Of a stretch of DNA of 37,764 nucleotides, positions 1,251-17,590 are shown piece by piece (positions within the stretch are counted from its first letter, which is position 1; every line of letters begins with the position of its first letter). This stretch comes from a virus. Lineage: Duplodnaviria; Heunggongvirae; Uroviricota; Caudoviricetes. A program made the translations under genes and the position numbers. The notes under the pieces are model-generated. The model searched no databases. It saw nothing but the letters and a program-made list of their open reading frames with translations, and was not told the DNA's origin. The stretch lies in the IMG/VR virus record IMGVR_UViG_2883489344_000002; one strand, given 5' to 3'.

Positions 1251-2201
1251 ATGACGATCATTTTATTCATTATTGGTATAGTTGTTGTCTCATGTATTTA
1301 TGAAGCTCTTTTTAAGAGTAGCTCAGTTAATGACATCAAGAAAAGCAATAGTGGGACTCAATTTAAGAAAGTTGAACCAAATAAAAATGCAGTAAAAAAA
1401 ACATCGCTGGAATCATACGAAAACATTTCAAAAAAAGAAGACAACCCATCATTTAGTGAAAGCAATGCTGCAATAAATTACATATTATTTAATGCGAAAA
1501 AAAATTCAGAAACATCCCTTGCAGAAAAAGAAAGCAAAGCAGTAAGTCTTGAAGAATTATTTAGCCAAATACAAAACCTGTCTGATAAAAAGTTTGTTTT
1601 TTTCGATGCATTTGAATCTAACGGTTTGTCATGTTATTTTCTACATGACTATTATCCGTTAAAATATACTGACATCTCTGAAAAAAACAAAGAAAATAGA
1701 AAGATTGTTTATGATTTTAAAGATGGTTTGTTAAATGAAAAAACAAAGAATATCCCTAAAGAGATAGCGACAATTTTGCTGAATAGTTTTAGTAAGGATT
1801 TACTAAAAGAAACAATATTTATATGTCTTCCTTCCTCTACACAGCTAAAATATAGAAGAAGATATACGCGCTTCAGTGAAGAAATTTGTAAATCTTGTGG
1901 AATGATAAATTTTTTCCAGCATGTATCCTATCTTTGGGATAGGAAAGCAAAACATATTGAGGGAATCTCTGCGGGCAGTGAATTATCTCACATTTATTTC
2001 CCTGAAAAAATAGTAGAAAATAAGAATATAATAATTTTTGATGACGTTTTCACTACAGGGAAAACACTCCACGCCATGGAATCAAAATTAAAGCTATACG
2101 GAGCAAACGTCGTGGCAGCCATTTTTATTGGTAAAACTTATGATCAGCATAGAATCAAAAAGGGCATGCTCCGAAAAACCTATTCTTTGATTGAGGATTA
2201 A
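1251..2201 (+). CDS. ComF-like phosphoribosyltransferase with N-terminal membrane anchor; putative ShosT-like defence effector
   Basis: PRPP-binding loop IIIFDDVFTTGKT. Hydrophobic residues 1-21, then a K/E/S/N-rich linker. AT-rich; stop is 3 nt before the DprA-like gene. Confidence 0.85.
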   Translation: MTIILFIIGIVVVSCIYEALFKSSSVNDIKKSNSGTQFKKVEPNKNAVKKTSLESYENISKKEDNPSFSESNAAINYILFNAKKNSETSLAEKESKAVSLEELFSQIQNLSDKKFVFFDAFESNGLSCYFLHDYYPLKYTDISEKNKENRKIVYDFKDGLLNEKTKNIPKEIATILLNSFSKDLLKETIFICLPSSTQLKYRRRYTRFSEEICKSCGMINFFQHVSYLWDRKAKHIEGISAGSELSHIYFPEKIVENKNIIIFDDVFTTGKTLHAMESKLKLYGANVVAAIFIGKTYDQHRIKKGMLRKTYSLIED

Positions 2202-2204
2202 ACT

Positions 2205-3167
2205 ATGGGATTGAGTGCATCAAATATTTTATTCCTAAAATCAGTTCCTTACGTAGGAAACCAATCAGTGTTAAAACTTTTAGGGCAAGATAAGGGAAAT
2301 GATTATGTATCTGTAGCCGATATAATTGACTTCTTTCTAAGCACTTCAAAAATGAAGACCATTAGGTTGGAAACTTTAGATTTCCTGAAAAGCAGAGAAA
2401 AATGCAATAAGTTATACAATGAAATAGAAAGAAAAATTGATATAGGTTATTGTAGTGGTGTCATTCCTCTTGGTTATAATGACGACAATTTTCCTACATC
2501 ATTAAAAATTATAAAAAATAAAAGCGGGGGTAATATTGCCCCTACTGTTATCTTCTACAAAGGGAATGTCGATTGTTTAAGCTATAGTCAAAATGCTACT
2601 GTTATTGGCTCTAGAAAACCTACTGAGCGGACAAAGAAAGCCGGGGAGTATATAGCAAAATTTCTTTCGGATAATGATTTTAATATCGTAAGCGGCTTAG
2701 CCAAAGGATGCGATGAAATAGTCCATTCGGTTGCAGTATCTAGAAAAACAAAAACCACTGCTATTTTGCCACAAGGTATCGATAAAATTTACCCTTCCAC
2801 TAGTACAAAGCTAGCCGAATCTATCGTTGATACAGGTGGTATTCTTCTGTCTGAGCTTATGATTGGCGAACGTGTAACTAAATATAGCTTAGTAGAAAGA
2901 GATAGATTGCAAAGCGCTATTTCAGATAAAACTATCGTTTTACAAACAGCAATAGATGGAGGAACTATGCATGCAGCAATGAGTGCGCTATATAATCTGA
3001 AAAAACTCTATGTCATCGATTACAAATCTATAAATAGTGAGGATGCTGTTTTTTATTCAGGATTTGAGCATTTACTAAGCAATGGCGCGCAAAAATTGAA
3101 TTCGAATGAAATGTATAATTTAGTGACAATGAAAGAGAACAAAAAACAAGAATCTTTATTTGACTAA
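2205..3167 (+). CDS. DprA/SMF-family protein; putative ShosA-like partner
   Basis: DprA Rossmann motifs VIGSR, IVSGLAKGCD, GGILLSE, ERDRLQSAIS, GGTMH. Operonic with the PRTase. Confidence 0.9.
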   Translation: MGLSASNILFLKSVPYVGNQSVLKLLGQDKGNDYVSVADIIDFFLSTSKMKTIRLETLDFLKSREKCNKLYNEIERKIDIGYCSGVIPLGYNDDNFPTSLKIIKNKSGGNIAPTVIFYKGNVDCLSYSQNATVIGSRKPTERTKKAGEYIAKFLSDNDFNIVSGLAKGCDEIVHSVAVSRKTKTTAILPQGIDKIYPSTSTKLAESIVDTGGILLSELMIGERVTKYSLVERDRLQSAISDKTIVLQTAIDGGTMHAAMSALYNLKKLYVIDYKSINSEDAVFYSGFEHLLSNGAQKLNSNEMYNLVTMKENKKQESLFD

Positions 3168-3595: not shown

Positions 3596-3618
3596 TTATC
3601 CACCGTTTCTGTGGATAA
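3596..3618. promoter_or_regulatory. Inverted pair of DnaA-box-like 9-mers
   Basis: TTATCCACC-GTTTC-TGTGGATAA. The second is a perfect TTATCCACA on the minus strand. Confidence 0.45.
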
Positions 3619-3643
3619 CCCGCGGCCAGGTCTGCCTGACCTG

Positions 3644-3997
3644 CTACCACAACGCCGTCATGATGCTGGGTTCGCCGTCGGCCATGCCCCAGAACATCAC
3701 CTGCAACCGGGGCATCAGGCCCATTCCCGCCATCACCGGGTTCAGGGCCTGTGCCGGGTCAGGGTGAGCCTCCCGTTCGGCCTGGAGTGTGATCTGTAAC
3801 GCCTCAGCGTCAGCCAGATGTTCAAAGGTCAAAGCCATGGACACGTCCCGCCCCCAGTAGCCTGCCCCCAGGTAAAACAGATCGCCCGTCACGTCCGGGC
3901 GCCGGATCACAAATCCCATTGGGCGAATATCTTGTTTATTGTTCGACTGCACAATGTGTAGCCAGAATTCCCGTGTTCCCGCTTCTTTACTCATCAC
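3644..3997 (-). CDS. Hypothetical protein (up to 117 aa)
   Basis: Open frame only; no recognisable domain; start uncertain. Confidence 0.4.
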   Translation of the reverse strand: MMSKEAGTREFWLHIVQSNNKQDIRPMGFVIRRPDVTGDLFYLGAGYWGRDVSMALTFEHLADAEALQITLQAEREAHPDPAQALNPVMAGMGLMPRLQVMFWGMADGEPSIMTALW

Positions 3998-4236
3998 TAC
4001 CTAATAATCAGCGATATTTTCCAGTCAGGATGCCATAGCACGTCTTCTTTCCCATACGACGGGGGACTCAATTCAGGCAAAATCAGAAGGATGCCAGGTA
4101 GCGCGAGGATCCCGGGCAGCCCGAGATACATAACAAGGCCGTGGATGAGCCGCGGCGGCACGACCCATGTATGGGAAACATGTCTATTTTGGTTCCCGGC
4201 GATCCACGCTAGCGACAGCACGGGCTGTTTTGCCAT
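3997..4236 (-). CDS. Hypothetical small hydrophobic protein whose start lies inside the 51-bp repeat
   Basis: MAKQPVLSLAWIA is encoded by the repeat itself; central hydrophobic stretch. Confidence 0.3.
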   Translation of the reverse strand: MAKQPVLSLAWIAGNQNRHVSHTWVVPPRLIHGLVMYLGLPGILALPGILLILPELSPPSYGKEDVLWHPDWKISLIIR

Positions 4237-4248
4237 AACGTGGCCTGA
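4198..4248 (-). repeat. 51-bp inverted repeat, right copy
   Basis: Reverse complement matches 3344-3394 at 48/51. Confidence 0.95.
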
Positions 4249-4259
4249 CAGGGCGAAAC

Positions 4260-4283
4260 GTCCGCTATGAGCGAGAAGCGGAC
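4260..4283 (-). repeat. 24-bp palindromic site, type A
   Basis: Reverse complement GTCCGCTTCTCGCTCATAGCGGAC. Confidence 0.9.
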
Positions 4284-4327
4284 ATGGTATGGGGCCGATT
4301 ACACATTAGTAACCTGACCCAGAAGAT

Positions 4328-4729
4328 TTAATTTTGCTTGTTCTGGTATAGATCCCAGCGGTTACCGTAAATGTCTTCAAACACCACGACCATCCCGTAA
4401 TCCTCCTCCCGCGGCTCCTGGCAGAAGTGGACACCCTTCGCTTTCATGGCGTTGTAGTCGCGCCAGAAGTCGTCAGTCTGTAAGAACAGGAAAACCCGTC
4501 CACCGCACTGGTTGCCGATAAAGCCTTCCTGCCGCTCGTTTGAAGCACGGGCCAGGAGAAGATTACAGTCGCTTTCCGGATTTGGCGTCACAACGACCCA
4601 GCGCTTACCCGGCTGCGGGGTGTCTTCTACCAGCGTAAAGCCCAGCTTATCGGTGTAATACTCAATTGCGCGGTCATAGTCGTCGACCACGATCGCCACA
4701 TAACCCATGCATCGTTTTTGCGTTCTCAT
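4328..4729 (-). CDS. VOC family (glyoxalase/bleomycin-resistance-like) protein
   Basis: YVAIVVDDYDRAIEYYTDKLGF, GKRWVVV, GGRVFLFLQTDDF and VVVFEDIYGNRWDL are typical VOC motifs. SD GGAG before the ATG. Confidence 0.92.
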   Translation of the reverse strand: MRTQKRCMGYVAIVVDDYDRAIEYYTDKLGFTLVEDTPQPGKRWVVVTPNPESDCNLLLARASNERQEGFIGNQCGGRVFLFLQTDDFWRDYNAMKAKGVHFCQEPREEDYGMVVVFEDIYGNRWDLYQNKQN

Positions 4730-4824
4730 TTCTGCTCCATCAGGTTTCAGACACAGCTTTCTTGAAACAACTTTTTAACACAATCTAACGCTACTAGCTG
4801 CACAGATGAGGCCAAAATAATAAC

Positions 4825-4848
4825 GTCCGCTTCTGGCACAAAGCGGAC
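4825..4848 (+). repeat. 24-bp palindromic site, type B
   Basis: GTCCGCTTCTGGCACAAAGCGGAC. Confidence 0.9.
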
Positions 4849-5118
4849 ATATCTCATCCGGCGTTTTGTCGCCGTCAGTCAACCTAGTCTCTTTGTATCA
4901 GGCACGGCGGTTGCTCCAACTTTCTCGTATCATTTGTTGCCATAGATGCACTGCAACGAGGCATTCAACTGCTGTCGCATTTGTCGCCGTTAGGCTGGGA
5001 AAACATCAATCTGACAAGCGATTATTGAAAGCAACCGGATACCGGCTTTTCGGTAAATTTCGTCAGCGGCGACCAGCTAAAGTCCAAAGGTCAAAAAAAT
5101 AGTCCTGGCGTACAATAA

Positions 5119-5763
5119 TTATCGATATCCAAAATAATCCCTGTCGCGCTCTTTGGCATAGGCCTTATCCAGGTTAAGCGTATCGCCGCGCGCATCGCCA
5201 AACGGCACGTTGCCCACGCCCCCATCAAAGCTGTTATCAGGCGACCCGGCGGCCAATGCCTCGAATGGCGTCACCCTTACGTCATCCTCGGGGTGCAGCA
5301 GCTGGTTGATACGGCCGGATACGGCGCTGATCTCGGTGGCAGTCATAATGGTGCCGCGCGGCTTGGTCTCGTTAAAGACCCCGACACCCGAAGACGGCTC
5401 CAAGGTATTGCCCGAGTCCGCTCCGTAGAGCTTCATGATCTCCCACGTACCCTCAGCTACATGCTGCGGGGAGTAATACTCATGCGTCGATCCGCCGATC
5501 CCGCCCTCGCCGGTGTACCCCGCCAAGGTCTGACGCTGCTCGTCTGTCAGCTGCGCACCGTCTGGCAGGCTCTCCAGCAACGCGATCGCTTTCTGGTTAG
5601 CTTCCTTGCGAGCGCGCTCGATAGACACCCCCGCCTGCTTGCGGATCCCGAAGGTCACAACCGGCCGGCGGCTGGCCAGCGATCGGATGATCCGCACAAT
5701 CTCTGAAATCGAGTTACAGCCCTGAATGGCGGCACTGATTTTGTTCCGTAAATCGTCAGGCAT
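5119..5763 (-). pseudogene. darB: Truncated P1 DarB homologue (N-terminal ~214 aa, partial methyltransferase domain)
   Basis: EANQKAIALL, LTDEQRQTLAGYTGEGGIGGS, NTLEPSSGVGVFNETKP, SGRINQLLHPED and GNVPFG match the P1 DarB N-terminus as recalled. P1 DarB is over 2000 aa. Similarity stops near 5140 and no downstream frame continues it. Divergent from prt as in P1. Confidence 0.93.
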
Positions 5764-5803
5764 TCGCCATCTCCAAAGTGAACATTTGCTACGTTGCCGC
5801 CAC

Positions 5804-5824
5804 ATTCTAGGAATTCTTACATCT
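5804..5824 (-). promoter_or_regulatory. P1-type late promoter for darB
   Basis: Minus strand AGATGTAAGAA-TTCC-TAGAAT; same box-N4-TANNNT layout as three other copies. Confidence 0.6.
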
Positions 5825-5842
5825 AAGAGGGTTGTGGCTCCG

Positions 5843-7582
5843 ATGCCGAAATTTGCATACGACACCATTCGCAAAGCACTGGAAGCAGCAATGCCCGGTA
5901 GCGCATCGAATAAGGGGGTTCCTTTGGCACTGGGTCCCACCAGCAGCGGCGGTAATGGCGTGGTTTATTCACGCTCTGCCCTGTTTGGCAACGATGCGGC
6001 GGGAAAAGACTTCACTGACACGCTGGTTAATCCTGGCGGGCAAGTCTTAGATGAGGCGGTGCTACCTGAAGATCGGCTAATGCGCTATCCGTTTTTAGAG
6101 GAGATGGCCGCTTACCCAACCCTTTCGGCCGCGCTCAACATCCATATCTCCTATGCGTTTTCGATAGACAAAACCACCAATCTTTCGTTTCGGCTGAAGC
6201 CGGTAACCAATAGCGAAGACAAGGATTTTGAGTCTGCACAAACGCTCTGCGAGGAGCTGATGGCGGACATTGGGCGCACCATCAACGACGAATTACCGGG
6301 CTGGGCAACCATCATGGCTGTGTTTGGCACGGGCTATATCCGGCCGCACACCAAGCCCAAGGTAGGTATTACCGGCTTTGAGTCCAATTTCTACACCCTG
6401 CCCTATTTCATCCGTGAGTATGAAGTGGGTGGCCAGCTGGCCGGCTTCACCGGGGACTACCTGAAGGATGGCAATGGTGCGCTGGTATTTGCCAAGCCGT
6501 GGGAAATGGTGCCAATGCGCATCCCCTATTGGCGGCCGAAGAAAAACCAAATGCCGATGTACACCGGCACCGAGCAATTCAGCCTGTTATCTGATCCTGA
6601 AAAGCGCGTTCCCGTTGAGACCCAAAACTATGGGACCAGCCTGTTTGAGTATGCCTATGAACCGTATCTCAACCTACGGGCGGCCATCCGCTCGGTAAAG
6701 GGCACCCGCTTCAATGCCAGTAAGGTCGATCGGCTGATCGGGGTTCAAATGTCCTCCCTTGACCCGGCGCGTGGCGCGGAATACAGCCGTACCCTTTCCC
6801 AGCAGCTCAAGCGGTCTGCCGAACAGGTTGAGAAGCGGGCGCGCGGTCACAAAACCGCTCCGACCGTGATCAATACCCTGCTGCCTATCCTGGGGGCGGA
6901 CGGCAAAGGTCAGCTGCAAATCGACACGCAGACAATCCCGGTAGACATCACCGCTCTGGAAGACGTGATGTTCCACATCAAACAGCTGACCGCCAGTGTT
7001 GGAATGGATTACACCATGCTGGGCTTTGCTGACCAGATGTCTGGCGGGCTGGGGGAAGGCGGTTTCCTGCGCACGTCCATTCAGGCCGGCATGATCGCCA
7101 GCTGGTTGCGCGGCGGTGCCGCTGAGATGATTTACCGGATGTGTGACATTCACCTTGCCTTCAAATACGGGAAGGTTTACCCGCCCGGACAACGCCCGTT
7201 CGAGATCGAATTTAACTCGATGGCCACCAGCATCGAACTGGAAGAAAACGCCGCGCTCGATGGCCGCGCCAACTACGCCAGTGTGCTGGTGACCATCATT
7301 GATGCCATTTGCAATAACCCATCACTGGCCGGCTCCGAGACGTTCAAGCAGCTGGTGATGGGAGACATTTTAAAGGTGCCGCAGGAGCGCCTCTCCCTAC
7401 TGCTGACCGAGATCAAAAACGCCCCCAGCACAGAGGGCAACAACATGATGGAGAGCTTGGGCATCACGCCAGACCAGACGATCAGCGACCCGGATTTGCT
7501 GGCCATCATGAAAGCTATGCCCCGTGGCGATCTGGAGGACGTCATATTGAAAACATTCTGTAACCAAGAGGAAAAGCCATGA
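5843..7582 (+). CDS. prt: P1-like portal protein
   Basis: LPEDRLMRYPFLEEMA, ETQNYGTSLFEYAYEPY and DQMSGGLGEGGFLRT match P1 Prt. Start placed at ATG 5843 (GTG 5834 possible); the ORF-track extension overlaps darB. Confidence 0.95.
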   Translation: MPKFAYDTIRKALEAAMPGSASNKGVPLALGPTSSGGNGVVYSRSALFGNDAAGKDFTDTLVNPGGQVLDEAVLPEDRLMRYPFLEEMAAYPTLSAALNIHISYAFSIDKTTNLSFRLKPVTNSEDKDFESAQTLCEELMADIGRTINDELPGWATIMAVFGTGYIRPHTKPKVGITGFESNFYTLPYFIREYEVGGQLAGFTGDYLKDGNGALVFAKPWEMVPMRIPYWRPKKNQMPMYTGTEQFSLLSDPEKRVPVETQNYGTSLFEYAYEPYLNLRAAIRSVKGTRFNASKVDRLIGVQMSSLDPARGAEYSRTLSQQLKRSAEQVEKRARGHKTAPTVINTLLPILGADGKGQLQIDTQTIPVDITALEDVMFHIKQLTASVGMDYTMLGFADQMSGGLGEGGFLRTSIQAGMIASWLRGGAAEMIYRMCDIHLAFKYGKVYPPGQRPFEIEFNSMATSIELEENAALDGRANYASVLVTIIDAICNNPSLAGSETFKQLVMGDILKVPQERLSLLLTEIKNAPSTEGNNMMESLGITPDQTISDPDLLAIMKAMPRGDLEDVILKTFCNQEEKP

Positions 7583-8616
7583 GTCAGAAGGTACTCGCTA
7601 CCCATACCGATCGCTTCTCGCTGTTTGAGAAGGTACGCAAGGGCAAGCAAAACAACCGCAACTACATGCTGGAGGCGGTGAAATCGATGATTAACAGCCC
7701 GGAGACCCAAGAGGGGCTGCGACTGGGTGAGCTGTACGGCTATTACGGTCACACCCGCCGGGTAATGACGGGCAATATGGAGCTGCCGGAGACAGCGGTG
7801 GTGATGGTGGAAGGCAAAGCCGTGGTATTGGACAACGTGCCCTCCAACCGCACCGTTGAGCTGTCGGTTGACGATGACGGCGTAGTAACCCATACCGAAG
7901 AGATTTTTGAGACCCCCACCGGCAAGATCGTGGCCTCCATGCTTGAATCTCGCGCGGGCGGCTGGTCATGGGTGACCACCGGGCGCGATTCCCCGGCGAT
8001 CTCGATCCCCAAGGCATTCTATGGTTTCGACTATGTGACCATGCCGAATTTCATCAGCAAAGACCATCCAGCCGCAATGCATGAAAGTGCAGATTCACGT
8101 ACAGCGGCGATGCTGGAATCTCTGCAAAATCAGGGCTTCAGCAGTGACGCAGCCACCAGCATTATCGAGCACTATGATTTGCTGAGCCACCGCGAAGCCA
8201 TGATCGAAAGTGTGCTGCGCGTAGAGGAGCTGGAGAGCACCACCCTCATTGCTACCGGCCAACTGTTGGCAAAGGAGCGTGAGCTTGAGGAAACCCGCGC
8301 CATGCTTGAATCCTTACGCACTGCGAATGCCCAGCAGGGCAACATGATGGAAGGCCGTAAGTCCATGCTGGCCAAAGCCCTCGACCGGCTGCCGGTATTC
8401 GTCACTGAGCGCCATCGTTCAGCACTCGCCAACATGCAAACAGAGGATGATCTGGCCGTCGCAGTAGCGCTGTTTGAATCGCTTTCTCGCCCAGAGATCC
8501 GCACCCTACCTTTGCATAATGATGCAATTTTTGAGAGTAAAAAAACGAGTTGCGCTGTAGGGTACGACGACAATTCGATCGTATCTTTCACCAATGAAGT
8601 ACCACGATTCGGGTAA
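7579..8616 (+). CDS. pro: P1-like prohead protease
   Basis: ETQEGLRLGELYGYYGH, ESRAGGWSW and DYVTMPNFIS match P1 Pro. ATGA overlap with prt. Confidence 0.95.
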   Translation: MSQKVLATHTDRFSLFEKVRKGKQNNRNYMLEAVKSMINSPETQEGLRLGELYGYYGHTRRVMTGNMELPETAVVMVEGKAVVLDNVPSNRTVELSVDDDGVVTHTEEIFETPTGKIVASMLESRAGGWSWVTTGRDSPAISIPKAFYGFDYVTMPNFISKDHPAAMHESADSRTAAMLESLQNQGFSSDAATSIIEHYDLLSHREAMIESVLRVEELESTTLIATGQLLAKERELEETRAMLESLRTANAQQGNMMEGRKSMLAKALDRLPVFVTERHRSALANMQTEDDLAVAVALFESLSRPEIRTLPLHNDAIFESKKTSCAVGYDDNSIVSFTNEVPRFG

Positions 8617-8711
8617 AATTCAACGCCTTAAATATACCCATATGATAATTGTGGATTAAAGGTTTAGTATTGCCGCTTGATCCTTTACACGATCCGCGAT
8701 TAAACTCCTCG

Positions 8712-8750
8712 GCGCATTGAGATCCTCTTAGGTTTCAATGCGCTTTTTTT
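8712..8750 (+). terminator. Intrinsic terminator after prt-pro
   Basis: GCGCATTGA...TCAATGCGC stem followed by a T run. Confidence 0.7.
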
Positions 8751-8773
8751 TCAGTCACTCAAGGAGCTATTCC

Positions 8774-9013
8774 ATGGAAAACCAGCACCGCTTGATTAAA
8801 ACCTATCGAGAGCTATCCGCTGAAGAGATCGCCTTAATGAATAGCGGCAAAGAGCTTGAAACAGCCGTACAGGCCTATGTTAACCGCCTGCATGAGGCGC
8901 ATAACGCTGGGGAAGTGGTGATTGAGCAACGTTGGCTGGCTATCGGCAAGACCGATATTGAGAAAGGTTTTATGGCCGTCATTCGCGCTATTGCAAAACC
9001 TGACGTGGCATAA
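8774..9013 (+). CDS. acb2: Acb2-family anti-CBASS cyclic-oligonucleotide sponge (79 aa)
   Basis: MENQHRLIKTYRELSAEEIALMNSGK and RWLAIGKTDIEKGFMAVIRAIAKP parallel Pseudomonas phage Acb2 (MDNQHRKIAGYRDL...[24 protein letters not shown], recalled). Y11 and K26 fall at the same positions. SD AAGGAG at 8761-8766. Confidence 0.9.
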   Translation: MENQHRLIKTYRELSAEEIALMNSGKELETAVQAYVNRLHEAHNAGEVVIEQRWLAIGKTDIEKGFMAVIRAIAKPDVA

Positions 9014-9040
9014 AAAAAAGGCCACCGAAACGGTAGCCTT
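9012..9040 (-). terminator. Minus-strand intrinsic terminator
   Basis: AGGCTACCG-TTT-CGGTGGCC-T8. The stem has a G-U pair on the minus strand but a C-A mismatch and no U-tract on the plus strand. Confidence 0.8.
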
Positions 9041-9066
9041 ACAAATAATTCAAAAATCTAAACCTG
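9012..9066 (-). ncRNA. Predicted ~55-nt antisense RNA to the repL 5' region (ends approximate)
   Basis: Minus-strand sigma70 promoter TTGAAA(9101-9096)-17-TATAGT(9078-9073) points at a minus-strand intrinsic terminator (9040-9012). No ORF lies between them. Confidence 0.55.
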
Positions 9067-10044
9067 ATGAAAACTATACCAAAAAAAACCTGTTCTTTCA
9101 AGGAGACAGGTGATTTAAACGGCTATGGCCTGCGTCGCGCCATTGAAGCCCTGACCAATGATTGCTTGCCCCGCCCCGCGCGCGTTGTCCTGTCACAATG
9201 CTGCTCCGTCGCCGCCAGCACCAGTGCCTTCAAAATCACTATGGCTCGCTCCAAAATGGCAGAATTGTGCGGGGTAACCTCTGCAACCATCCGCCGTCGC
9301 TTCAAAGACTCTGTGAGTGCCACGATCATCACTGAAACTGCCGTATTTGATCGTAAGGCAGGCGGGTTCGGCCAGATGCCTACTGAGTACCAGTTTACCA
9401 AGCCATTTTTACAAGCTGCCAAGGCCTTTTGTAAGGCATGGGATACGGGTACAAGAGAGGTTAAGACATTAGCCCAAAAGGCCTTTAATGAGGCCATAAA
9501 AAATCTTCAAAATAAGCCACTTACCTCGGACACCCCCCGATCAAAATTATCGGCCACCCCCGATCAGGATGATCACCAAATACTTGGATTTACTGAATAC
9601 GAGAATCCAAAAGACTATGCGGCTCCGCCCGCAGATTTTGACAGGCCAAAGGCCAAAAGTTGGGATGATGCCCGTGCAGAACGCGCCACGACGCAAGCAC
9701 AGGATCACAAAGCCCGGCAGGAAGCAGCCCGTGCCAAGCGCCAGCAGTCCACCAGCAAGCTCAAGGGGCTGGCAAGGTGGGCATTCAATGGCAGCCGCGC
9801 CACCGGCAGGGCTACGCCACAGACAAGCCACAATGCCGCCCGCATGAGAGAGTCAGACCAGCGGCATGAGCAAACCACCAAAGATGCGGCACGGGCACAC
9901 CGCGAGGCACTGGCAAGCGGGTATAGCCCTCTTGATGCTATTCGCCGTGTGATGCCCGGCTACCGCCCTACTACCACCAGCAAGGATCACCATGACACAT
10001 ACCGGGACGTTAACCAGCCCACGCAAGCCAAAGGGGCGTTTTAA
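9067..10044 (+). CDS. repL: P1 RepL-like lytic replication initiator (HTH)
   Basis: LNGYGL...ARVVLSQCCSVAASTSAFKI, an HTH (MAELCGVTSATIRR), YQFTKPFL and TPDQDD parallel P1 RepL (FSGYEL...ILSQCANLAATTSEYFI, YRFTPSFL, PCQDD, recalled). Confidence 0.7.
   Translation: MKTIPKKTCSFKETGDLNGYGLRRAIEALTNDCLPRPARVVLSQCCSVAASTSAFKITMARSKMAELCGVTSATIRRRFKDSVSATIITETAVFDRKAGGFGQMPTEYQFTKPFLQAAKAFCKAWDTGTREVKTLAQKAFNEAIKNLQNKPLTSDTPRSKLSATPDQDDHQILGFTEYENPKDYAAPPADFDRPKAKSWDDARAERATTQAQDHKARQEAARAKRQQSTSKLKGLARWAFNGSRATGRATPQTSHNAARMRESDQRHEQTTKDAARAHREALASGYSPLDAIRRVMPGYRPTTTSKDHHDTYRDVNQPTQAKGAF
9534..9566 (+). repeat. Direct repeat CCCCCGATCA x2 inside repL; candidate oriL element
   Basis: Copies at 9534-9543 and 9557-9566, followed by a third GATC. 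Confidence 0.4.
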
Positions 10045-10527
10045 GCCTCGCCAGCCGTCTGCCACCCGCTCTCCTGCCCCGACGTCGGAGGAAATCAAAG
10101 CGGCGCACACGCAGGTAGGGACTGAAATCACCCGAAAGAAAAACCATAGCCAACGGATGTTTGTGAAAAAGCTGTTCCCGGCGCTGTTTTCTGGCGATCA
10201 CCCCTCCCGATGGAGAAAGGGATCAAAGACGCCATGCTGACGTCGATTGTGCGCCGTGGGCTGGACGTATCCGAGGCACGGCTACAGGCCGCACTTCGCG
10301 CCTGTTGCGCGTCGCTGGTGTACCGGGCAAGGGTATGCGCTATGCGTTTTCGCCGTGACATAGATGGCAAGCCAGTAGAGGCCATTGAGGAAGAAGACAA
10401 GAACCACGCATGGCAGAAAATTGTGGAGTATCGGGCGCGCCACCAGCTCCCCAGTTGCCGCCGGTGTGGAAGAAAAGCGCCGTTAAGAAGCGTCCGGCCA
10501 AGCCCGGCAAGCGTCGGGCACGGGTAG
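9992..10527 (+). CDS. FinO/ProQ-family RNA chaperone, split by a one-base loss in a C run (10201-10204)
   Basis: ORFs 9992..10240 and 10210..10527 join as LFPALFSGDHPLPMEKGIKD...RLQAALR...YR...RRDIDGKP with one added C. This is the FinO/ProQ core (LKxGI, RxDLDG). SD AAGGA before ATG 9992. A second slip at C run 10449-10452 is possible. Confidence 0.8.
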
Positions 10528-11137: not shown

Positions 11138-11169
11138 GATTTCACTCAAGGCAAGCACTAAGGGAAGTG

Positions 11170-11466
11170 ATGATTAGTAGTTTCCGGGGTGGCAAGGATA
11201 GCAATCTGAGCCAGTTTATGCAGGAAGGGGCGCGAGTGCCGACTATACCGGCCTCAATTGAAAGTGCTCTCTCACGAAAGCTTAGTGTTATTGACTCGGC
11301 TACGAAAGAAAGAGACCTTTTCAACCCTCGGAGTAACAATTATGAGCGACTGTCTGGCACCCTTGATGGATGGTCTAGCATAAGAGTTAATATCCACTGG
11401 AGGTTAATATTTCAGTGGCGTGATGGATGCGCCTACGAGATATATTTAGACCCCCATAAGTATTAG
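11170..11466 (+). CDS. higB: HigB (RelE-fold) toxin
   Basis: MISSF...LSRKLSVIDSA...DLFNPRSNNYERLSG..GWSSIRVNIHWRLIFQW, typical of plasmid-killer HigB. Confidence 0.9.
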   Translation: MISSFRGGKDSNLSQFMQEGARVPTIPASIESALSRKLSVIDSATKERDLFNPRSNNYERLSGTLDGWSSIRVNIHWRLIFQWRDGCAYEIYLDPHKY

Positions 11467-11470
11467 AAGC

Positions 11471-11503
11471 ATGGGCGGGGCGAAAGCCCCACCCATTTTC
11501 TTT
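11471..11503 (+). terminator. Terminator-like hairpin between higB and higA
   Basis: ATGGGCGGGGC-GAAA-GCCCCACCCAT followed by TTTCTTT. Confidence 0.5.
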
Positions 11504-11521
11504 ACAGTGATAGGTGAGATT

Positions 11522-11854
11522 ATGAATAAAATGATGGCAAATCCTCCAAGCGTTGGTGAAATTCTGGTCGAGGAGTTTTTGAAGCCCTGTAACATCACTC
11601 AGCAGCAGCTTGCCGACGCTATGGGCATCTCTCGTAAAGTGGTTAGCCAAATTGTGAATGGGAGCCGTCGCCTTACTGTGGCCGAGGGTGCCTTGATTGC
11701 TGCCCTGTTCGATATGAGCTGTGACTTTTTCCTGAACATCCAGCACATGAGTGATCGCTGGGAAGCGCATTTACTGACAGAGAAACATCGTTGGACGCCT
11801 TTAGTGCCCAGTGAATTTCCGTATGATGATGAAGTCGCGGCACCAGCGAAATAG
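11522..11854 (+). CDS. higA: HigA/VapI-type antitoxin (XRE HTH)
   Basis: PPSVGEILVEEFLKPCNITQQQLADAMGISRKVVSQIVNG...FFLNIQ; directly downstream of higB. Confidence 0.92.
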   Translation: MNKMMANPPSVGEILVEEFLKPCNITQQQLADAMGISRKVVSQIVNGSRRLTVAEGALIAALFDMSCDFFLNIQHMSDRWEAHLLTEKHRWTPLVPSEFPYDDEVAAPAK

Positions 11855-11888
11855 TCCTGCATGTGCTTGAGTGTCGAATGGATGCGCG

Positions 11889-11931
11889 CCCCTCCCCAGT
11901 TAGCTGGGGAGCGTTTTACGTTGTAGGGAAA
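11889..11931 (+). repeat. Intergenic hairpin element, copy 1
   Basis: CCCCTCCCCAGTTAGCTGGGGAGCGTTTTACGTTGTAGGGAAA; 37/44 aligned identity with 12961-13004. Confidence 0.85.
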
Positions 11932-11975
11932 GCTGGTAGAAGGCCTACTGGCCGCCTTGCCCAAGGAGAAAGAAA

Positions 11976-12371
11976 ATGACATGCCTAAGTTGTGGTTATC
12001 ATGAGTTTGTAGCCGGGAAACGCAGTGTGCCCTACCGTTACAAGGGTAAGGAGACAGTCCTGCTCGATGTCGATGCAAAATATTGCGCCATGTGCGGTGA
12101 TATTAATCTCTCAGGGGATTTGGCTGATGACTACATTGCCAAGGCGAAAGCCTTCCAAGCCTTGGTAGACGCAGATTACCCGGATGCGAAATTTATCGCT
12201 GATGTGCGCATAAAGCTGCACCTTACGCAGAGAGAGGCCAGCAAAATTATCGGTGGTGGCAATAGTGCATTTAGCCAATATGAGGCAGGCAAAAGGAAAG
12301 CATCACGCTCTACGATGATGTTGTTGCAGTTGCTGGATATGAACCCTGACTTGCTGAACATAATCCGTTAA
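11976..12371 (+). CDS. mqsA: MqsA-family antitoxin (Zn finger + HTH), no adjacent toxin
   Basis: CxxC (CLSC) and CxxC (CAMC), YRYKGKET, and IADVRIKLHLTQREASKIIGGGNSAFSQYEAG...LLQLLD. SD AAGGAG. Confidence 0.88.
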   Translation: MTCLSCGYHEFVAGKRSVPYRYKGKETVLLDVDAKYCAMCGDINLSGDLADDYIAKAKAFQALVDADYPDAKFIADVRIKLHLTQREASKIIGGGNSAFSQYEAGKRKASRSTMMLLQLLDMNPDLLNIIR

Positions 12372-12424
12372 TACGCTTTTGCGCGGCAGACAATCCCTCG
12401 CTACCTCCCTGCACTGAAACAGAG

Positions 12425-12451
12425 AAACCGCCTCTCAGGGCGGTTTTTTTT
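12425..12451 (+). terminator. Intrinsic terminator after mqsA
   Basis: AAACCGCC...GGCGG followed by a T run. Confidence 0.8.
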
Positions 12452-12505
12452 ACAACCTTTTGAACCCTAAAACCTCAATTAAGTTGTTTTAATAAAACCA
12501 AATGC

Positions 12506-12534
12506 TTGCTAAACAACCCACAAAAGGTTATATT
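12506..12534 (+). promoter_or_regulatory. sigma70 promoter of the XRE gene
   Basis: TTGCTA-17-TATATT. Confidence 0.6.
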
Positions 12535-12555
12535 GTTGTTATTCCGCAGGGAACA

Positions 12556-12568
12556 CGCTCTTTAACAA
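12556..12568 (+). promoter_or_regulatory. boxA antitermination sequence
   Basis: CGCTCTTTAACAA, the Nus boxA consensus, in the 5' UTR between the promoter and the SD. Confidence 0.65.
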
Positions 12569-12580
12569 GTTGAGGGAATT

Positions 12581-12955
12581 ATGATTGAAGTTCAATACTT
12601 GACCGATGCTGAAGGTAACCGCACCCATGTAGTGGTGGAAATCGGGCTGTTCAACCGCCTTGCAGCGAGTGCTGATATCCCGGAGCAATGGGAGGATATC
12701 CCCTATGAAGCCGGTGAAAATGATTCAGAAACCATCCCAACTGAAGTTGTCGGCATCTCCATCAAAAAAGGTGTCACGCTACTGGCGGCATGGCGTATCC
12801 ATCGCAACATGTCCCAAAAAGAGGCCGCCGATGCGCTGGGGATCACCCAAGCTGGCATCTCCAAAATAGAGAAGAGTGAGCGCCCCCATGCGGCAACGCT
12901 GGAGAAGTTCGCCAAACTCTATGACTGCCGCCCTGAGCAATTGACGACGGCATAA
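12581..12955 (+). CDS. XRE-HTH protein of HigA-like antitoxin type, no adjacent toxin
   Basis: N-terminal VQYLTDAEGNRTHVVV; C-terminal LLAAWRIHRNMSQKEAADALGITQAGISKIEKS HTH. Confidence 0.8.
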   Translation: MIEVQYLTDAEGNRTHVVVEIGLFNRLAASADIPEQWEDIPYEAGENDSETIPTEVVGISIKKGVTLLAAWRIHRNMSQKEAADALGITQAGISKIEKSERPHAATLEKFAKLYDCRPEQLTTA

Positions 12956-12960
12956 TCGCA

Positions 12961-13004
12961 CCCCTTCCCCAGTCCGCTGGGGAGCGCTACACGTTGCAGG
13001 GAAA
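12961..13004 (+). repeat. Intergenic hairpin element, copy 2
   Basis: CCCCTTCCCCAGTCCGCTGGGGAGCGCTACACGTTGCAGGGAAA; its 3' end is the SD region of ATG 13009. Confidence 0.85.
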
Positions 13005-13008
13005 AAGC

Positions 13009-13374
13009 ATGAATACAGCAATTATTGAGTCTACTACCACTAACCTGATGCTGGTGGAAGGTGTCCAGATGGCATCAGTACAGCCCAAGCGGAAACTGCT
13101 TGCCCGAGCCTATGAGTTAACGAAAGGAGACGGAGAGGCGCGCGATGGCCGCATTTTGATGTCCATCGAAGGTCCCCGCGATTTTATCGAGTGGGCAGAA
13201 GCAGATCTTGAGCAGGATTTTGTCAACGTGAAGATAGAAGAAGAAGGAAAAAACGAAGATGAAATCGGTTTGATTTTTGGCTTGGATCGCGCGGACAAGT
13301 CTGTATTCATGGCTCGCTGGAAGCAGCTCAAGGCCGCATGGAAGAAAGGCCAAGGTTATCCTGCTTCAAAGTAA
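13009..13374 (+). CDS. Hypothetical protein (121 aa)
   Basis: ATG after AGGGA; acidic core and basic, Trp-containing tail; followed by a terminator. Confidence 0.75.
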   Translation: MNTAIIESTTTNLMLVEGVQMASVQPKRKLLARAYELTKGDGEARDGRILMSIEGPRDFIEWAEADLEQDFVNVKIEEEGKNEDEIGLIFGLDRADKSVFMARWKQLKAAWKKGQGYPASK

Positions 13375-13424
13375 ATCACTGGGTAGGTCAGTGGCAGGAT
13401 AGACCCCCGCTAGATCAGCAACGT

Positions 13425-13455
13425 AAAAAAGGCCAGTCAGTAGACTGGCCTTTTT
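13425..13455. terminator. Bidirectional intrinsic terminator
   Basis: A run, GGCCAGTC-AGTA-GACTGGCC, T run. Confidence 0.8.
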
Positions 13456-13720
13456 CTACTCTACAGCACCAGTACAGGCTGGTAGCAGCGCGCAATTGCC
13501 TTTACTTGGTCAATGAGTTACCCCCCGCTCACGCGGGGGCAATACAGTGCGATGCCTTAGAGTCGCCTAAAGAATAGCAGCCCTCACCCATGCCCGGCAA
13601 TGGGAAAGCCCTAGGCTTGACGTGCCTCACGTTTATGGGACCAGGCGTGGCAAAATCCCTCGCGCCTGCCATGATCAATGGTGCACATCCATGATTAAGT
13701 ATCCATAGTAACCCGGATAT

Positions 13721-13749
13721 TTGCCCGCCTCGCGCGGGCTTTTTTATGC
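13721..13749 (+). terminator. Terminator upstream of hicA (direct repeat of 14498-14526)
   Basis: TTGCCCGCCTCGCGCGGGCTTTTTTATGC; 27/29 identical to the copy after hicB. Confidence 0.85.
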
Positions 13750-13758
13750 GCCTAACAA

Positions 13759-13813
13759 ATACCCACCAATAACCACTAAATTAGTTGCATTGGTGGTTAT
13801 TGGTGGGTATAAT
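13759..13813 (+). promoter_or_regulatory. hicAB sigma70 promoter with an 18-bp inverted-repeat operator
   Basis: TTGCAT(13785)-17-TATAAT(13808). ATACCCACCAATAACCAC (13759-13776) is the exact reverse complement of 13793-13810. Confidence 0.85.
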
Positions 13814-13843
13814 CATTTCCGAGTTGAGCACATGGGAGGTAGT

Positions 13844-14017
13844 TTGAGCAGTAGGGAATTGATGAAGTTGCTAGTGCAACACGGGTGGGTTTTAAAGCGT
13901 GTGAAAGGAAGCCATCACACCTATACCAAGGTGGGGCGAGTAGACATTATTACCGTCCCCCATCCAGAGAAAGACGTAGCGACAGGTACATTGCGCGACA
14001 TTCTCAAAAGGCTGTAA
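13844..14017 (+). CDS. hicA: HicA toxin (57 aa)
   Basis: TTG start after GGAGG; GWVLKRVKGSHH and ITVPHPEKDVATGTLRDIL HicA motifs. Confidence 0.92.
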   Translation: MSSRELMKLLVQHGWVLKRVKGSHHTYTKVGRVDIITVPHPEKDVATGTLRDILKRL

Positions 14018-14065
14018 ACAAGTGGCGCGCCCAGCGCGCCCTTTTAAGAACCTAGAGGTTTAATT

Positions 14066-14473
14066 ATGATTTTTCCAATCTACATTCATCAGGCTGAAAG
14101 TGGCACCTACTCCGGGTTCGTGCCGGACATTGCAGGATGCTACTTCGCTGGTGCAACCATTGACGCAACCATTCAAGACGCTGATGCAGCCATTGACGCG
14201 CATCTAGAGTTCTTGGCGGATGAGGGACAGGCGTTACCTGTCGCCAACACTATCGAGTTTCACAAAAGCAATGACAGCTGCGTAGATGGTGTCTGGGCTT
14301 ATGTGAACGTTGACTTGTCCAAGTATGACGGCAAGAGCATTAAGTTAAATATCACATTGCCGCAGAATCTGATCGCGCGCATTGACCAGTATGTAGCAAC
14401 CCATCCAGCCTACGGCTCTCGCAGCGGCTTTTTGGCCGCCGTGGCGCGTAACGAGATTCAGAAAAGCGCCTAA
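14066..14473 (+). CDS. hicB: HicB antitoxin with C-terminal RHH
   Basis: YSGFVPDIAGCYFAGATID and KLNITLPQNLIARID...SRSGFLAAVA. Confidence 0.95.
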   Translation: MIFPIYIHQAESGTYSGFVPDIAGCYFAGATIDATIQDADAAIDAHLEFLADEGQALPVANTIEFHKSNDSCVDGVWAYVNVDLSKYDGKSIKLNITLPQNLIARIDQYVATHPAYGSRSGFLAAVARNEIQKSA

Positions 14474-16702: not shown

Positions 16703-17590
16703 TTATTCGATGATATCTAAGGATTTTAACTTAGGATGACGCTCGAAAATGATAAACTGTATTTCTCTACCCTTCTTCGTCTCACTGTATGATAAATATC
16801 CAATTTTCTCTAAATCAGCCAGGGCACGGCGAATGATCTGATTTTGCACATTAACTGGGGATTCCATAGCTAATCTTTCACGTAACCTTTTCATTGATAT
16901 GAATAAAGTTCCGCTAGGCATACTCTCGAAGTAGATATAAAGGGATTGTGCAGCCTCTTTCTTCGCCAACTCAGCTAATGCCTTAAGCCCTAGCAACACT
17001 TTATGGTCATATCGATAAAGCTCCCATAACCGCTTGTCTCCAATGATTTCTACGGTATCGTTTTTGATGTCTAAAACAGCACTATGAACCAGGTGAGTGA
17101 TCATAGATTTCTGTCCATCTTTGGAGCTGAAGGCGAGTGTAAGGCTTGAGATATTGAATAGTGAGTCGTGTAAGCGAGTACGCAAGCGCGCTTTGATATC
17201 GACTGATTTGATACCACATAGCTTAGCAAACTCAACGAAAGGGAGGTTTATCTTTTCGCTTGAAAATCCATAAGTTGAGAATGCAGATATGATGCCTATC
17301 CATGTTTTGAAATCAGTAGACATATTCAATTTTGCACCTTGAATCTTGATGTTCGAATATCCCTCCTGGCGTGCAACTTCAAGGCTAGACAACTCTTCAG
17401 ATGCATCAATCTGAAAATCACGCTTTCCCTTGTTTTTTGGGGAAACAGGTGTGAATACGCTTAAGCGTAACAGTGCTACTGGTTGCACAGTCTTATGGCT
17501 ATTAGGTACTAGTTCATAAACTGTGCCAGACTCCTTCCTAACCACCGCAAATGGATTACCTAATTCGTTGTTTTCAGCGTTCTTTTCCAT
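16703..17590 (-). CDS. repA: Plasmid replication initiator, RepFIB/P1-RepA family
   Basis: KTVQPVALLRLSVFTP, IKIQGAKLNMSTDFKTWIGII, LWELYRYDHKVLL and AAQSLYIYFESMP; flanked by iterons. Confidence 0.93.
   Translation of the reverse strand: MEKNAENNELGNPFAVVRKESGTVYELVPNSHKTVQPVALLRLSVFTPVSPKNKGKRDFQIDASEELSSLEVARQEGYSNIKIQGAKLNMSTDFKTWIGIISAFSTYGFSSEKINLPFVEFAKLCGIKSVDIKARLRTRLHDSLFNISSLTLAFSSKDGQKSMITHLVHSAVLDIKNDTVEIIGDKRLWELYRYDHKVLLGLKALAELAKKEAAQSLYIYFESMPSGTLFISMKRLRERLAMESPVNVQNQIIRRALADLEKIGYLSYSETKKGREIQFIIFERHPKLKSLDIIE

Follow-up and report, generated by a model that had tools for sequence, protein, structure and literature searches.

The window analysed here (the whole stretch of 37,764 nucleotides) opens a contig of 101,864 bp (C7) and makes up its first 37.8 kb; the contig belongs to a genome of 5.03 Mb. 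Contig C7 encodes a RepA and a gp23 capsid protein that are 49% and 57% identical to those of P1, respectively, together with a c1-like repressor, and it is collinear with the Pantoea plasmid NZ_CP034366. Since a RepA replicon is combined with a P1-type capsid, portal and head-processing genes and a c1-like repressor on one element of ~100 kb, collinear with that plasmid, the element is a P1-like phage-plasmid of 102 kb. DNA-level searches turned up no closely related phage or plasmid record. The repA gene (Rep3 family; 16703..17590, minus strand) encodes a plasmid-type initiator and forms a separate lysogenic replicon.

The locus of interest lies on the plus strand and begins with the portal and head-processing genes (5726..8616), which are a conserved landmark upstream of the repL slot, followed by an Acb2/Tad1-family anti-defence gene (8774..9013; PF24729, E 3e-15), a 325-aa ORF and a FinO-domain gene. 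An acb2/tad1-family gene was also found directly 5' of repL in five other loci (L001, L010, L013, L014 and L015), and the slot after the head-processing gene is a cargo hot spot that can hold acb2, toxin-antitoxin pairs, a lysozyme gene or a colicin-like gene. There was no match to kilA anywhere in the genome. Elsewhere in the window, a toxin-antitoxin-like gene cluster occupies the region between finO and repA (11167-14473), with a HigB/HigA-like pair (11167-11854), a zinc-ribbon HTH gene (11976-12371), an HTH gene (12581-12955) and a HicB-like gene (14066-14473), and a pair formed by a phosphoribosyltransferase-domain gene and, behind it, a DprA/SLOG-domain gene (1251-3167) resembles predicted defence or nucleotide-signalling modules.

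According to profile comparison, the 325-aa ORF (9067..10044, plus strand) encodes a putative, repL-like lytic replication initiator that is a distant homolog of P1 RepL: the ORF family aligned to P1 RepL over 169 columns (hhalign probability 97.3, E 2.8e-11). The ORF itself was named neither by the local Pfam nor by PHROGs, but the Pfam family of the P1 RepL lytic initiators (PF26868) was present on the RepL of close relatives and faintly on a 99% identical protein, which places the ORF in that family by sequence homology. No additional full-length repL was recovered from 400 genomes of the same order. As an alternative start of repL, a strong Shine-Dalgarno sequence with GTG at ~9104-9112 was considered and rejected, given that its frame comprises only two codons and that it is absent in L008.

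The FinO/ProQ-domain gene was recognised from its domain and its relatives. A reading of this DNA made earlier from the letters alone (the sequence-only reading) had correctly placed it over the end of repL, which it overlaps by 53 nt, but had taken it as a single ORF ending at 10527; it runs instead from 9992 to ~10577 on the plus strand (~195 codons), with two 1-nt frameshifts (~10200 and ~10452). The middle fragment was assigned to PF04352 with 48.9 bits (cut-off 27), the RNA-binding Tyr and Arg are kept in the alignment with FinO and ProQ, and the FinO domain of an intact relative matched 1DVO (E 1.6e-7). The reading frame is intact in the relatives and broken in the window, both breaks sit in C-runs, and a 99% identical Logan contig carries one extra C at ~10200 and reads through the first break. 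The two frameshifts are probably assembly errors, since several structural genes show similar frame changes relative to the Pantoea plasmid. In particular, apparent frameshifts affect conserved phage genes, those of the baseplate among them, at ~30430 of the window and at ~38950, ~90100, ~94590 and ~97800 of contig C7, so that the contig assembly probably contains 1-nt indel errors. Besides ProQ, a further FinO-domain protein is encoded by the host genome.

Inside the first codons of repL (codons 3-12), the sequence scan detected an antisense sigma70 promoter (TTGAAA-17-TATAGT; 9073..9101, minus strand), exactly as it had been described from the sequence and with an extended -10 TG besides; it stands in the same register in relatives. 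With both strands scored by an approximate sigma70 matrix, this was the sole site of at least 12.3 bits in the 37.8-kb window, and it exceeded synonymous-codon shuffles (p=0.012). The terminator towards which it points also stood as proposed: an intrinsic terminator (9012..9040, minus strand) with its stem at 9040-9018 and a T-run to 9012, for which we looked for a plus-strand counterpart at the same hairpin and found none. The stop codon of acb2 adjoins its A-run. The predicted antisense RNA of ~54 nt (9012..9065, minus strand, from the expected start site) consists of the terminator hairpin and a weakly structured 5' half and has a folding z of -4.0; the Rfam scan of the window gave no match, antisense RNAs and FinP included. 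This RNA had been expected to lie over the region just upstream of the repL ATG, and the leader is indeed covered, to about -2 and thus short of the AUG. A Shine-Dalgarno match for repL was not found in the window, and the AT-rich leader targeted by the RNA is largely unpaired (mean unpaired 0.76). The antisense unit at the repL start is therefore supported at the level of sequence, and the predicted RNA is probably made in vivo.

On the sense strand, a candidate promoter of an acb2-repL-finO operon (TTGATC-18-TAAACT; 8677..8706, plus strand) is conserved in L001, L014 and L015. It carries two GATC sites, which recall the Dam sites annotated at P1 PkilA in NC_005856, and an operator-like TTAGTAT precedes it at 8664. 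This motif, often followed by N-T-N-TGT, was present 27 times in NZ_CP034366 (L057/L058; ~12 expected) and 22 times in the Citrobacter plasmid NZ_CP056338 (L068-L070; ~14 expected), often ahead of genes, and was not enriched in the window's contig; it is a candidate repressor operator that differs from the P1 C1 consensus. Just 3' of the candidate promoter lies a strong terminator-like hairpin (8711..8752, plus strand) that is specific to the window, the relatives having a different hairpin that lacks a U-run. The window's hairpin might act as an attenuator of the acb2-repL-finO operon or give rise to an RNA of ~40 nt, and as a plus-strand terminator it complicates the sense transcript of repL. 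We also noted a 13-mer, GAGCTATTCCATG, with only two copies in the contig (8764-8776 and 10734-10746), which end at the start codons of acb2 and of a 72-aa phrog_804 gene and may reflect either a common translation signal or a duplication. In the JK004/Salmonella clade (L007 3850-3865, L059 2358-2372, and L062), a sequence resembling the P1 C1 operator was found just 5' of a TTGCGA-17-TTTAAT promoter ahead of repL.

We then compared the antisense unit across 27 repL loci, whose RepL proteins are ~20-45% identical to that of the window. The scans recovered the PaskilA promoter annotated in P1 (NC_005856), used as a control, and predicted an RNA of ~179 nt for it. A TTG-17-TA..T promoter was the best minus-strand site near the repL start in 22 of the 27 loci, with a perfect TATAAT in two Xenorhabdus loci (L003 and L022), and the codon pair that it overlaps is shared by the window's clade, L003, L004, L020, L021, L022 and L056. 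The excess over synonymous shuffles was significant when one locus per lineage was combined (Fisher p=1e-4; 7e-4 without the window), though single-locus p-values were often 0.05-0.3 and the promoter overlaps conserved codons. The minus-strand terminator, an A-run with a hairpin upstream of repL, was present in all loci except the L012/L016/L017 clade. In the close group, 89% of the stem cells were paired and 3 pairs were doubly changed, figures that kinship inflates; over 20 hairpins, G-U wobbles favoured the minus strand by 12 to 3 and the T-run was on the minus side in 20 of 20. The conservation of promoter and terminator and the covariation of the hairpin, by which the proposal had asked to be judged, thus came out in favour of the antisense unit.

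The RNA always covers the translation-initiation region, and in most relatives it spans the Shine-Dalgarno sequence and the AUG. Its predicted length ranges from 52 to 222 nt and its 5' sequence is likewise highly variable; a second conserved hairpin and a conserved kissing loop were both searched for among the loci without success, and the 5' hairpin predicted in the window is not conserved. Two groups depart from the general pattern. In the JK004/Salmonella clade and in L052, the terminator is retained but the promoter is weak or missing. In the L012/L016/L017 clade, which is nested in the window's group, a c1-like gene precedes repL; the RepL protein has been kept there, but the -10, the terminator, acb2 and finO have all been lost. 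The repL-like genes of the latter clade appear to have been relocated outside an intact phage context. Taken together, conservation makes an antisense RNA that would restrain repL well supported.

The finO gene is found directly behind repL in L001, L010, L014, L015, L053/L054, L007, L059 and L062, the JK004/Salmonella clade included. In loci that have finO and a visible promoter, the predicted RNA measures 52-57 nt, against 79-222 nt in loci without finO. A Mann-Whitney comparison of these lengths was set aside as evidence because the loci are kin: those with finO and a short RNA form one weakly supported clade, and the pattern therefore represents one or two events. Adjacency of repL and finO holds in the window's clade, but the link between finO and the antisense unit is mixed among the relatives. 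Twelve loci keep promoter and terminator without an adjacent finO; conversely, JK004, L059 and L062 keep finO and the terminator with a decayed in-register promoter. The nearest finO relatives outside these loci (Citrobacter plasmids, L066 and L067) occupy the same slot without repL, and no repL was detectable in an entire plasmid of 98.8 kb. The P1-like Citrobacter element NZ_CP056338 keeps icd- and kilA-like genes although no repL was detected anywhere in it, and it may have lost its lytic initiator. These finO loci without repL have their own upstream terminator and operator-like motif. In the phage-plasmid contig L066, finO is directly followed (3601-5311) by a colicin-like gene and a gene that probably confers immunity, as read by eye from the ORFs.

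This presence and absence among relatives indicates that neither the antisense unit nor finO needs the other. A dependence of the RNA on finO is suggested by their joint loss in one clade and by the short-RNA pattern, against which stands the occurrence of each element alone elsewhere. The operator-like motif ahead of finO in the repL-less relatives, which is enriched genome-wide there, and the overlap of finO with the repL end in the window suggest that finO is probably an early lytic gene. It appears to belong to the lytic operon itself; apparently co-transcribed with repL, FinO would be scarce in lysogeny, which makes a constitutive silencing role there doubtful. A feedback by FinO during lytic growth would fit better than lysogenic silencing.

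The sequence-only reading had taken C1 and the C4 antisense system as the sole controls of repL in P1. This premise does not hold, as P1 has an antisense promoter of its own, PaskilA, annotated in its GenBank record (NC_005856), and a title listed among the references of PMC9948254, that of Heinrich et al. 1995 (NAR 23:1468; PMID 7784198), names antisense control of the P1 lytic replicon. In both P1 and the window, a sigma70 antisense promoter within the opening codons of a repL-operon gene points back over the leader to a terminator with A-run and hairpin, which would define a discrete RNA acting on a RepL-family lytic initiator; the P1 -10, TATATT, recurs unchanged in the window's closest relatives. 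The overlapped gene in P1 is kilA, which the window lacks, so that the window's RNA is not an askilA proper and faces repL directly. The antisense RNA of P1 (askilA/P53as) is ~180 nt long, compared with a predicted ~54 nt in the window. Furthermore, the C1-controlled P53 promoter of P1 lies within the antisense span, whereas the candidate sense promoter of the window lies ~350 nt upstream, ahead of acb2, and P1 has no finO behind repL.

Other systems resemble parts of the locus. FinOP of F-like plasmids (FinP, traJ and FinO) likewise joins a terminator-ended cis-antisense RNA over an initiation leader with a FinO domain. FinP RNAs, however, have two stem-loops and are antisense to traJ; the target here is repL, there is no Rfam FinP match and no conserved first stem-loop, and the RNA and FinO occur separately in relatives. 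Another parallel is FopA/Inc/repZ of the IncI plasmid pCol1B9, in which experiments showed a FinO-domain protein acting with a replication antisense RNA (PMC7491321). It shares with the window an element-encoded FinO-domain protein and a short cis-antisense RNA against the leader of a replication initiator, but it controls plasmid copy number through a kissing loop and a pseudoknot, whereas the window has a phage lytic initiator, a predicted RNA and a hypothetical FinO binding. In pRSF1010, FinO supports the antisense RNA RepX, which spans the ribosome-binding site and initiation codon of a replication gene (PMC8136791); there FinO comes from another plasmid and RepX is FinP-like in length and structure, while only the terminator hairpin is conserved here. 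Finally, PcnR is a FinO-domain protein that acts without an antisense RNA (PMC9977716). The locus would work like askilA, perhaps like FopA/Inc, and is not a member of FinOP. Hence the idea that fertility-inhibition logic is reused survives as antisense restraint of repL, which conservation supports, but the principle is that of P1 askilA/P53as and not a borrowed FinOP. The arrangement had also been thought undescribed. Given the P1 precedent, antisense control of a lytic replicon was already known; the novelty lies in the kilA-less form of ~55 nt, in its distribution among P1-like elements and in the finO gene next to it. A literature search for FinO with repL or phage-plasmids returned nothing relevant and no paper on a phage-encoded FinO at a lytic replicon, where a role of FinO is plausible and undescribed.

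We consider it likely that the locus is a kilA-less, shortened counterpart of askilA that brakes repL through an antisense RNA. Sense transcription of repL would start from a repressor-controlled promoter upstream of acb2, while the strong promoter in the first repL codons would fire backwards and halt at the minus-strand terminator, giving a constitutive cis-antisense RNA of ~54 nt. Pairing of this RNA with the unstructured, AT-rich initiation leader, to which interference between converging polymerases may add, would keep leaky repL expression in the lysogen below the threshold for lytic replication and firing of the lytic origin. Upon induction, sense transcription would out-titrate the RNA. 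The FinO-domain protein encoded downstream, a linked early gene, may stabilise the RNA in a system that does not generally depend on it. Several findings weigh against this explanation, namely the overlap of the promoter with conserved codons and its modest single-locus p-values, the weak or missing promoter of the JK004/Salmonella clade and L052, the RNA of the window that probably misses the AUG, a repL without Shine-Dalgarno match and the plus-strand terminator at 8711-8752. The first of these could even suggest that the promoter match arises by chance from AT-rich N-terminal codons, its hexamers overlapping conserved Ile and Phe-Lys codons, with the hairpin an ordinary terminator. We regard this as highly improbable in view of the combined p-value against synonymous shuffles, the strand-biased wobbles, the annotated P1 precedent and the clade without terminator, which lost the -10 as well and kept the RepL protein. 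It is also rather unlikely that the promoter works by transcriptional interference in cis, with the RNA as a by-product and the terminator serving only to keep antisense read-through out of acb2 and the head genes. The variable length and 5' sequence of the RNA and its non-conserved second hairpin would agree with interference, as would P1, where P53 and P53as are reportedly mutually inhibitory; the RNA nevertheless spans the initiation region in every case, and in most relatives the Shine-Dalgarno sequence and AUG too.

The part played by FinO is less settled than the antisense brake itself. That finO is an independent early gene sharing the slot, acting on other RNAs (of the phage, the host or a co-resident plasmid) or on an mRNA leader like PcnR, has a nearly even chance of being right. 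The Citrobacter relatives and two viral contigs, which keep finO without repL and with its own terminator and operator-like motif, point in this direction, as do the cargo hot spot in which it sits and the activity of PcnR without antisense RNA; against it stand the tight adjacency of repL and finO across such divergent RepL proteins, the clade in which both antisense unit and finO were lost, and the distribution of RNA lengths. The same adjacency, in eight loci or pairs, and the same joint loss of finO, promoter and terminator in the L012 clade are what would be expected of a full FinOP-like switch, an addition to the preferred explanation in which the phage FinO would be a dedicated chaperone that binds the terminator, stabilises the RNA and speeds its pairing with the leader. 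The short RNAs of finO loci, the retained RNA-binding Tyr and Arg, the binding of FinO domains to terminator 3' ends (PMC9977716) and the precedents of FopA/Inc (PMC7491321) and FinO/RepX (PMC8136791) are consistent with such a chaperone. We hold it only as a tentative possibility, considering the 12 loci that keep the unit without adjacent finO, the outside relatives in the same slot with repL absent from a whole plasmid, the decayed promoter beside finO in the JK004 clade, the one or two events behind the short-RNA pattern, the expected scarcity of FinO in lysogeny, the ProQ and further FinO-domain protein of the host and the frameshifts in the window's finO. What likelihood these two readings of FinO leave falls to a dead or indifferent finO gene.

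The antisense brake described for P1 thus appears, on the preferred explanation, in a form that is kept without kilA and written into the repL codons, which suggests that P1-like phage-plasmids across Enterobacterales generally conserve it in their lytic replicon. More speculatively, and with some doubt, one clade of these elements may have shrunk the P1-type RNA to ~55 nt and placed its own FinO chaperone behind repL, forming an antisense loop that would set a threshold or ceiling for lytic replication. Relatives with the RNA only, finO only, both or neither provide a natural comparison set. If the link to FinO is true, the ~55-nt RNA would be among the shortest ligands of FinO domains and would inform how these domains choose their RNAs, and the locus would offer a compact part for tuning the copy-number amplification driven by RepL.
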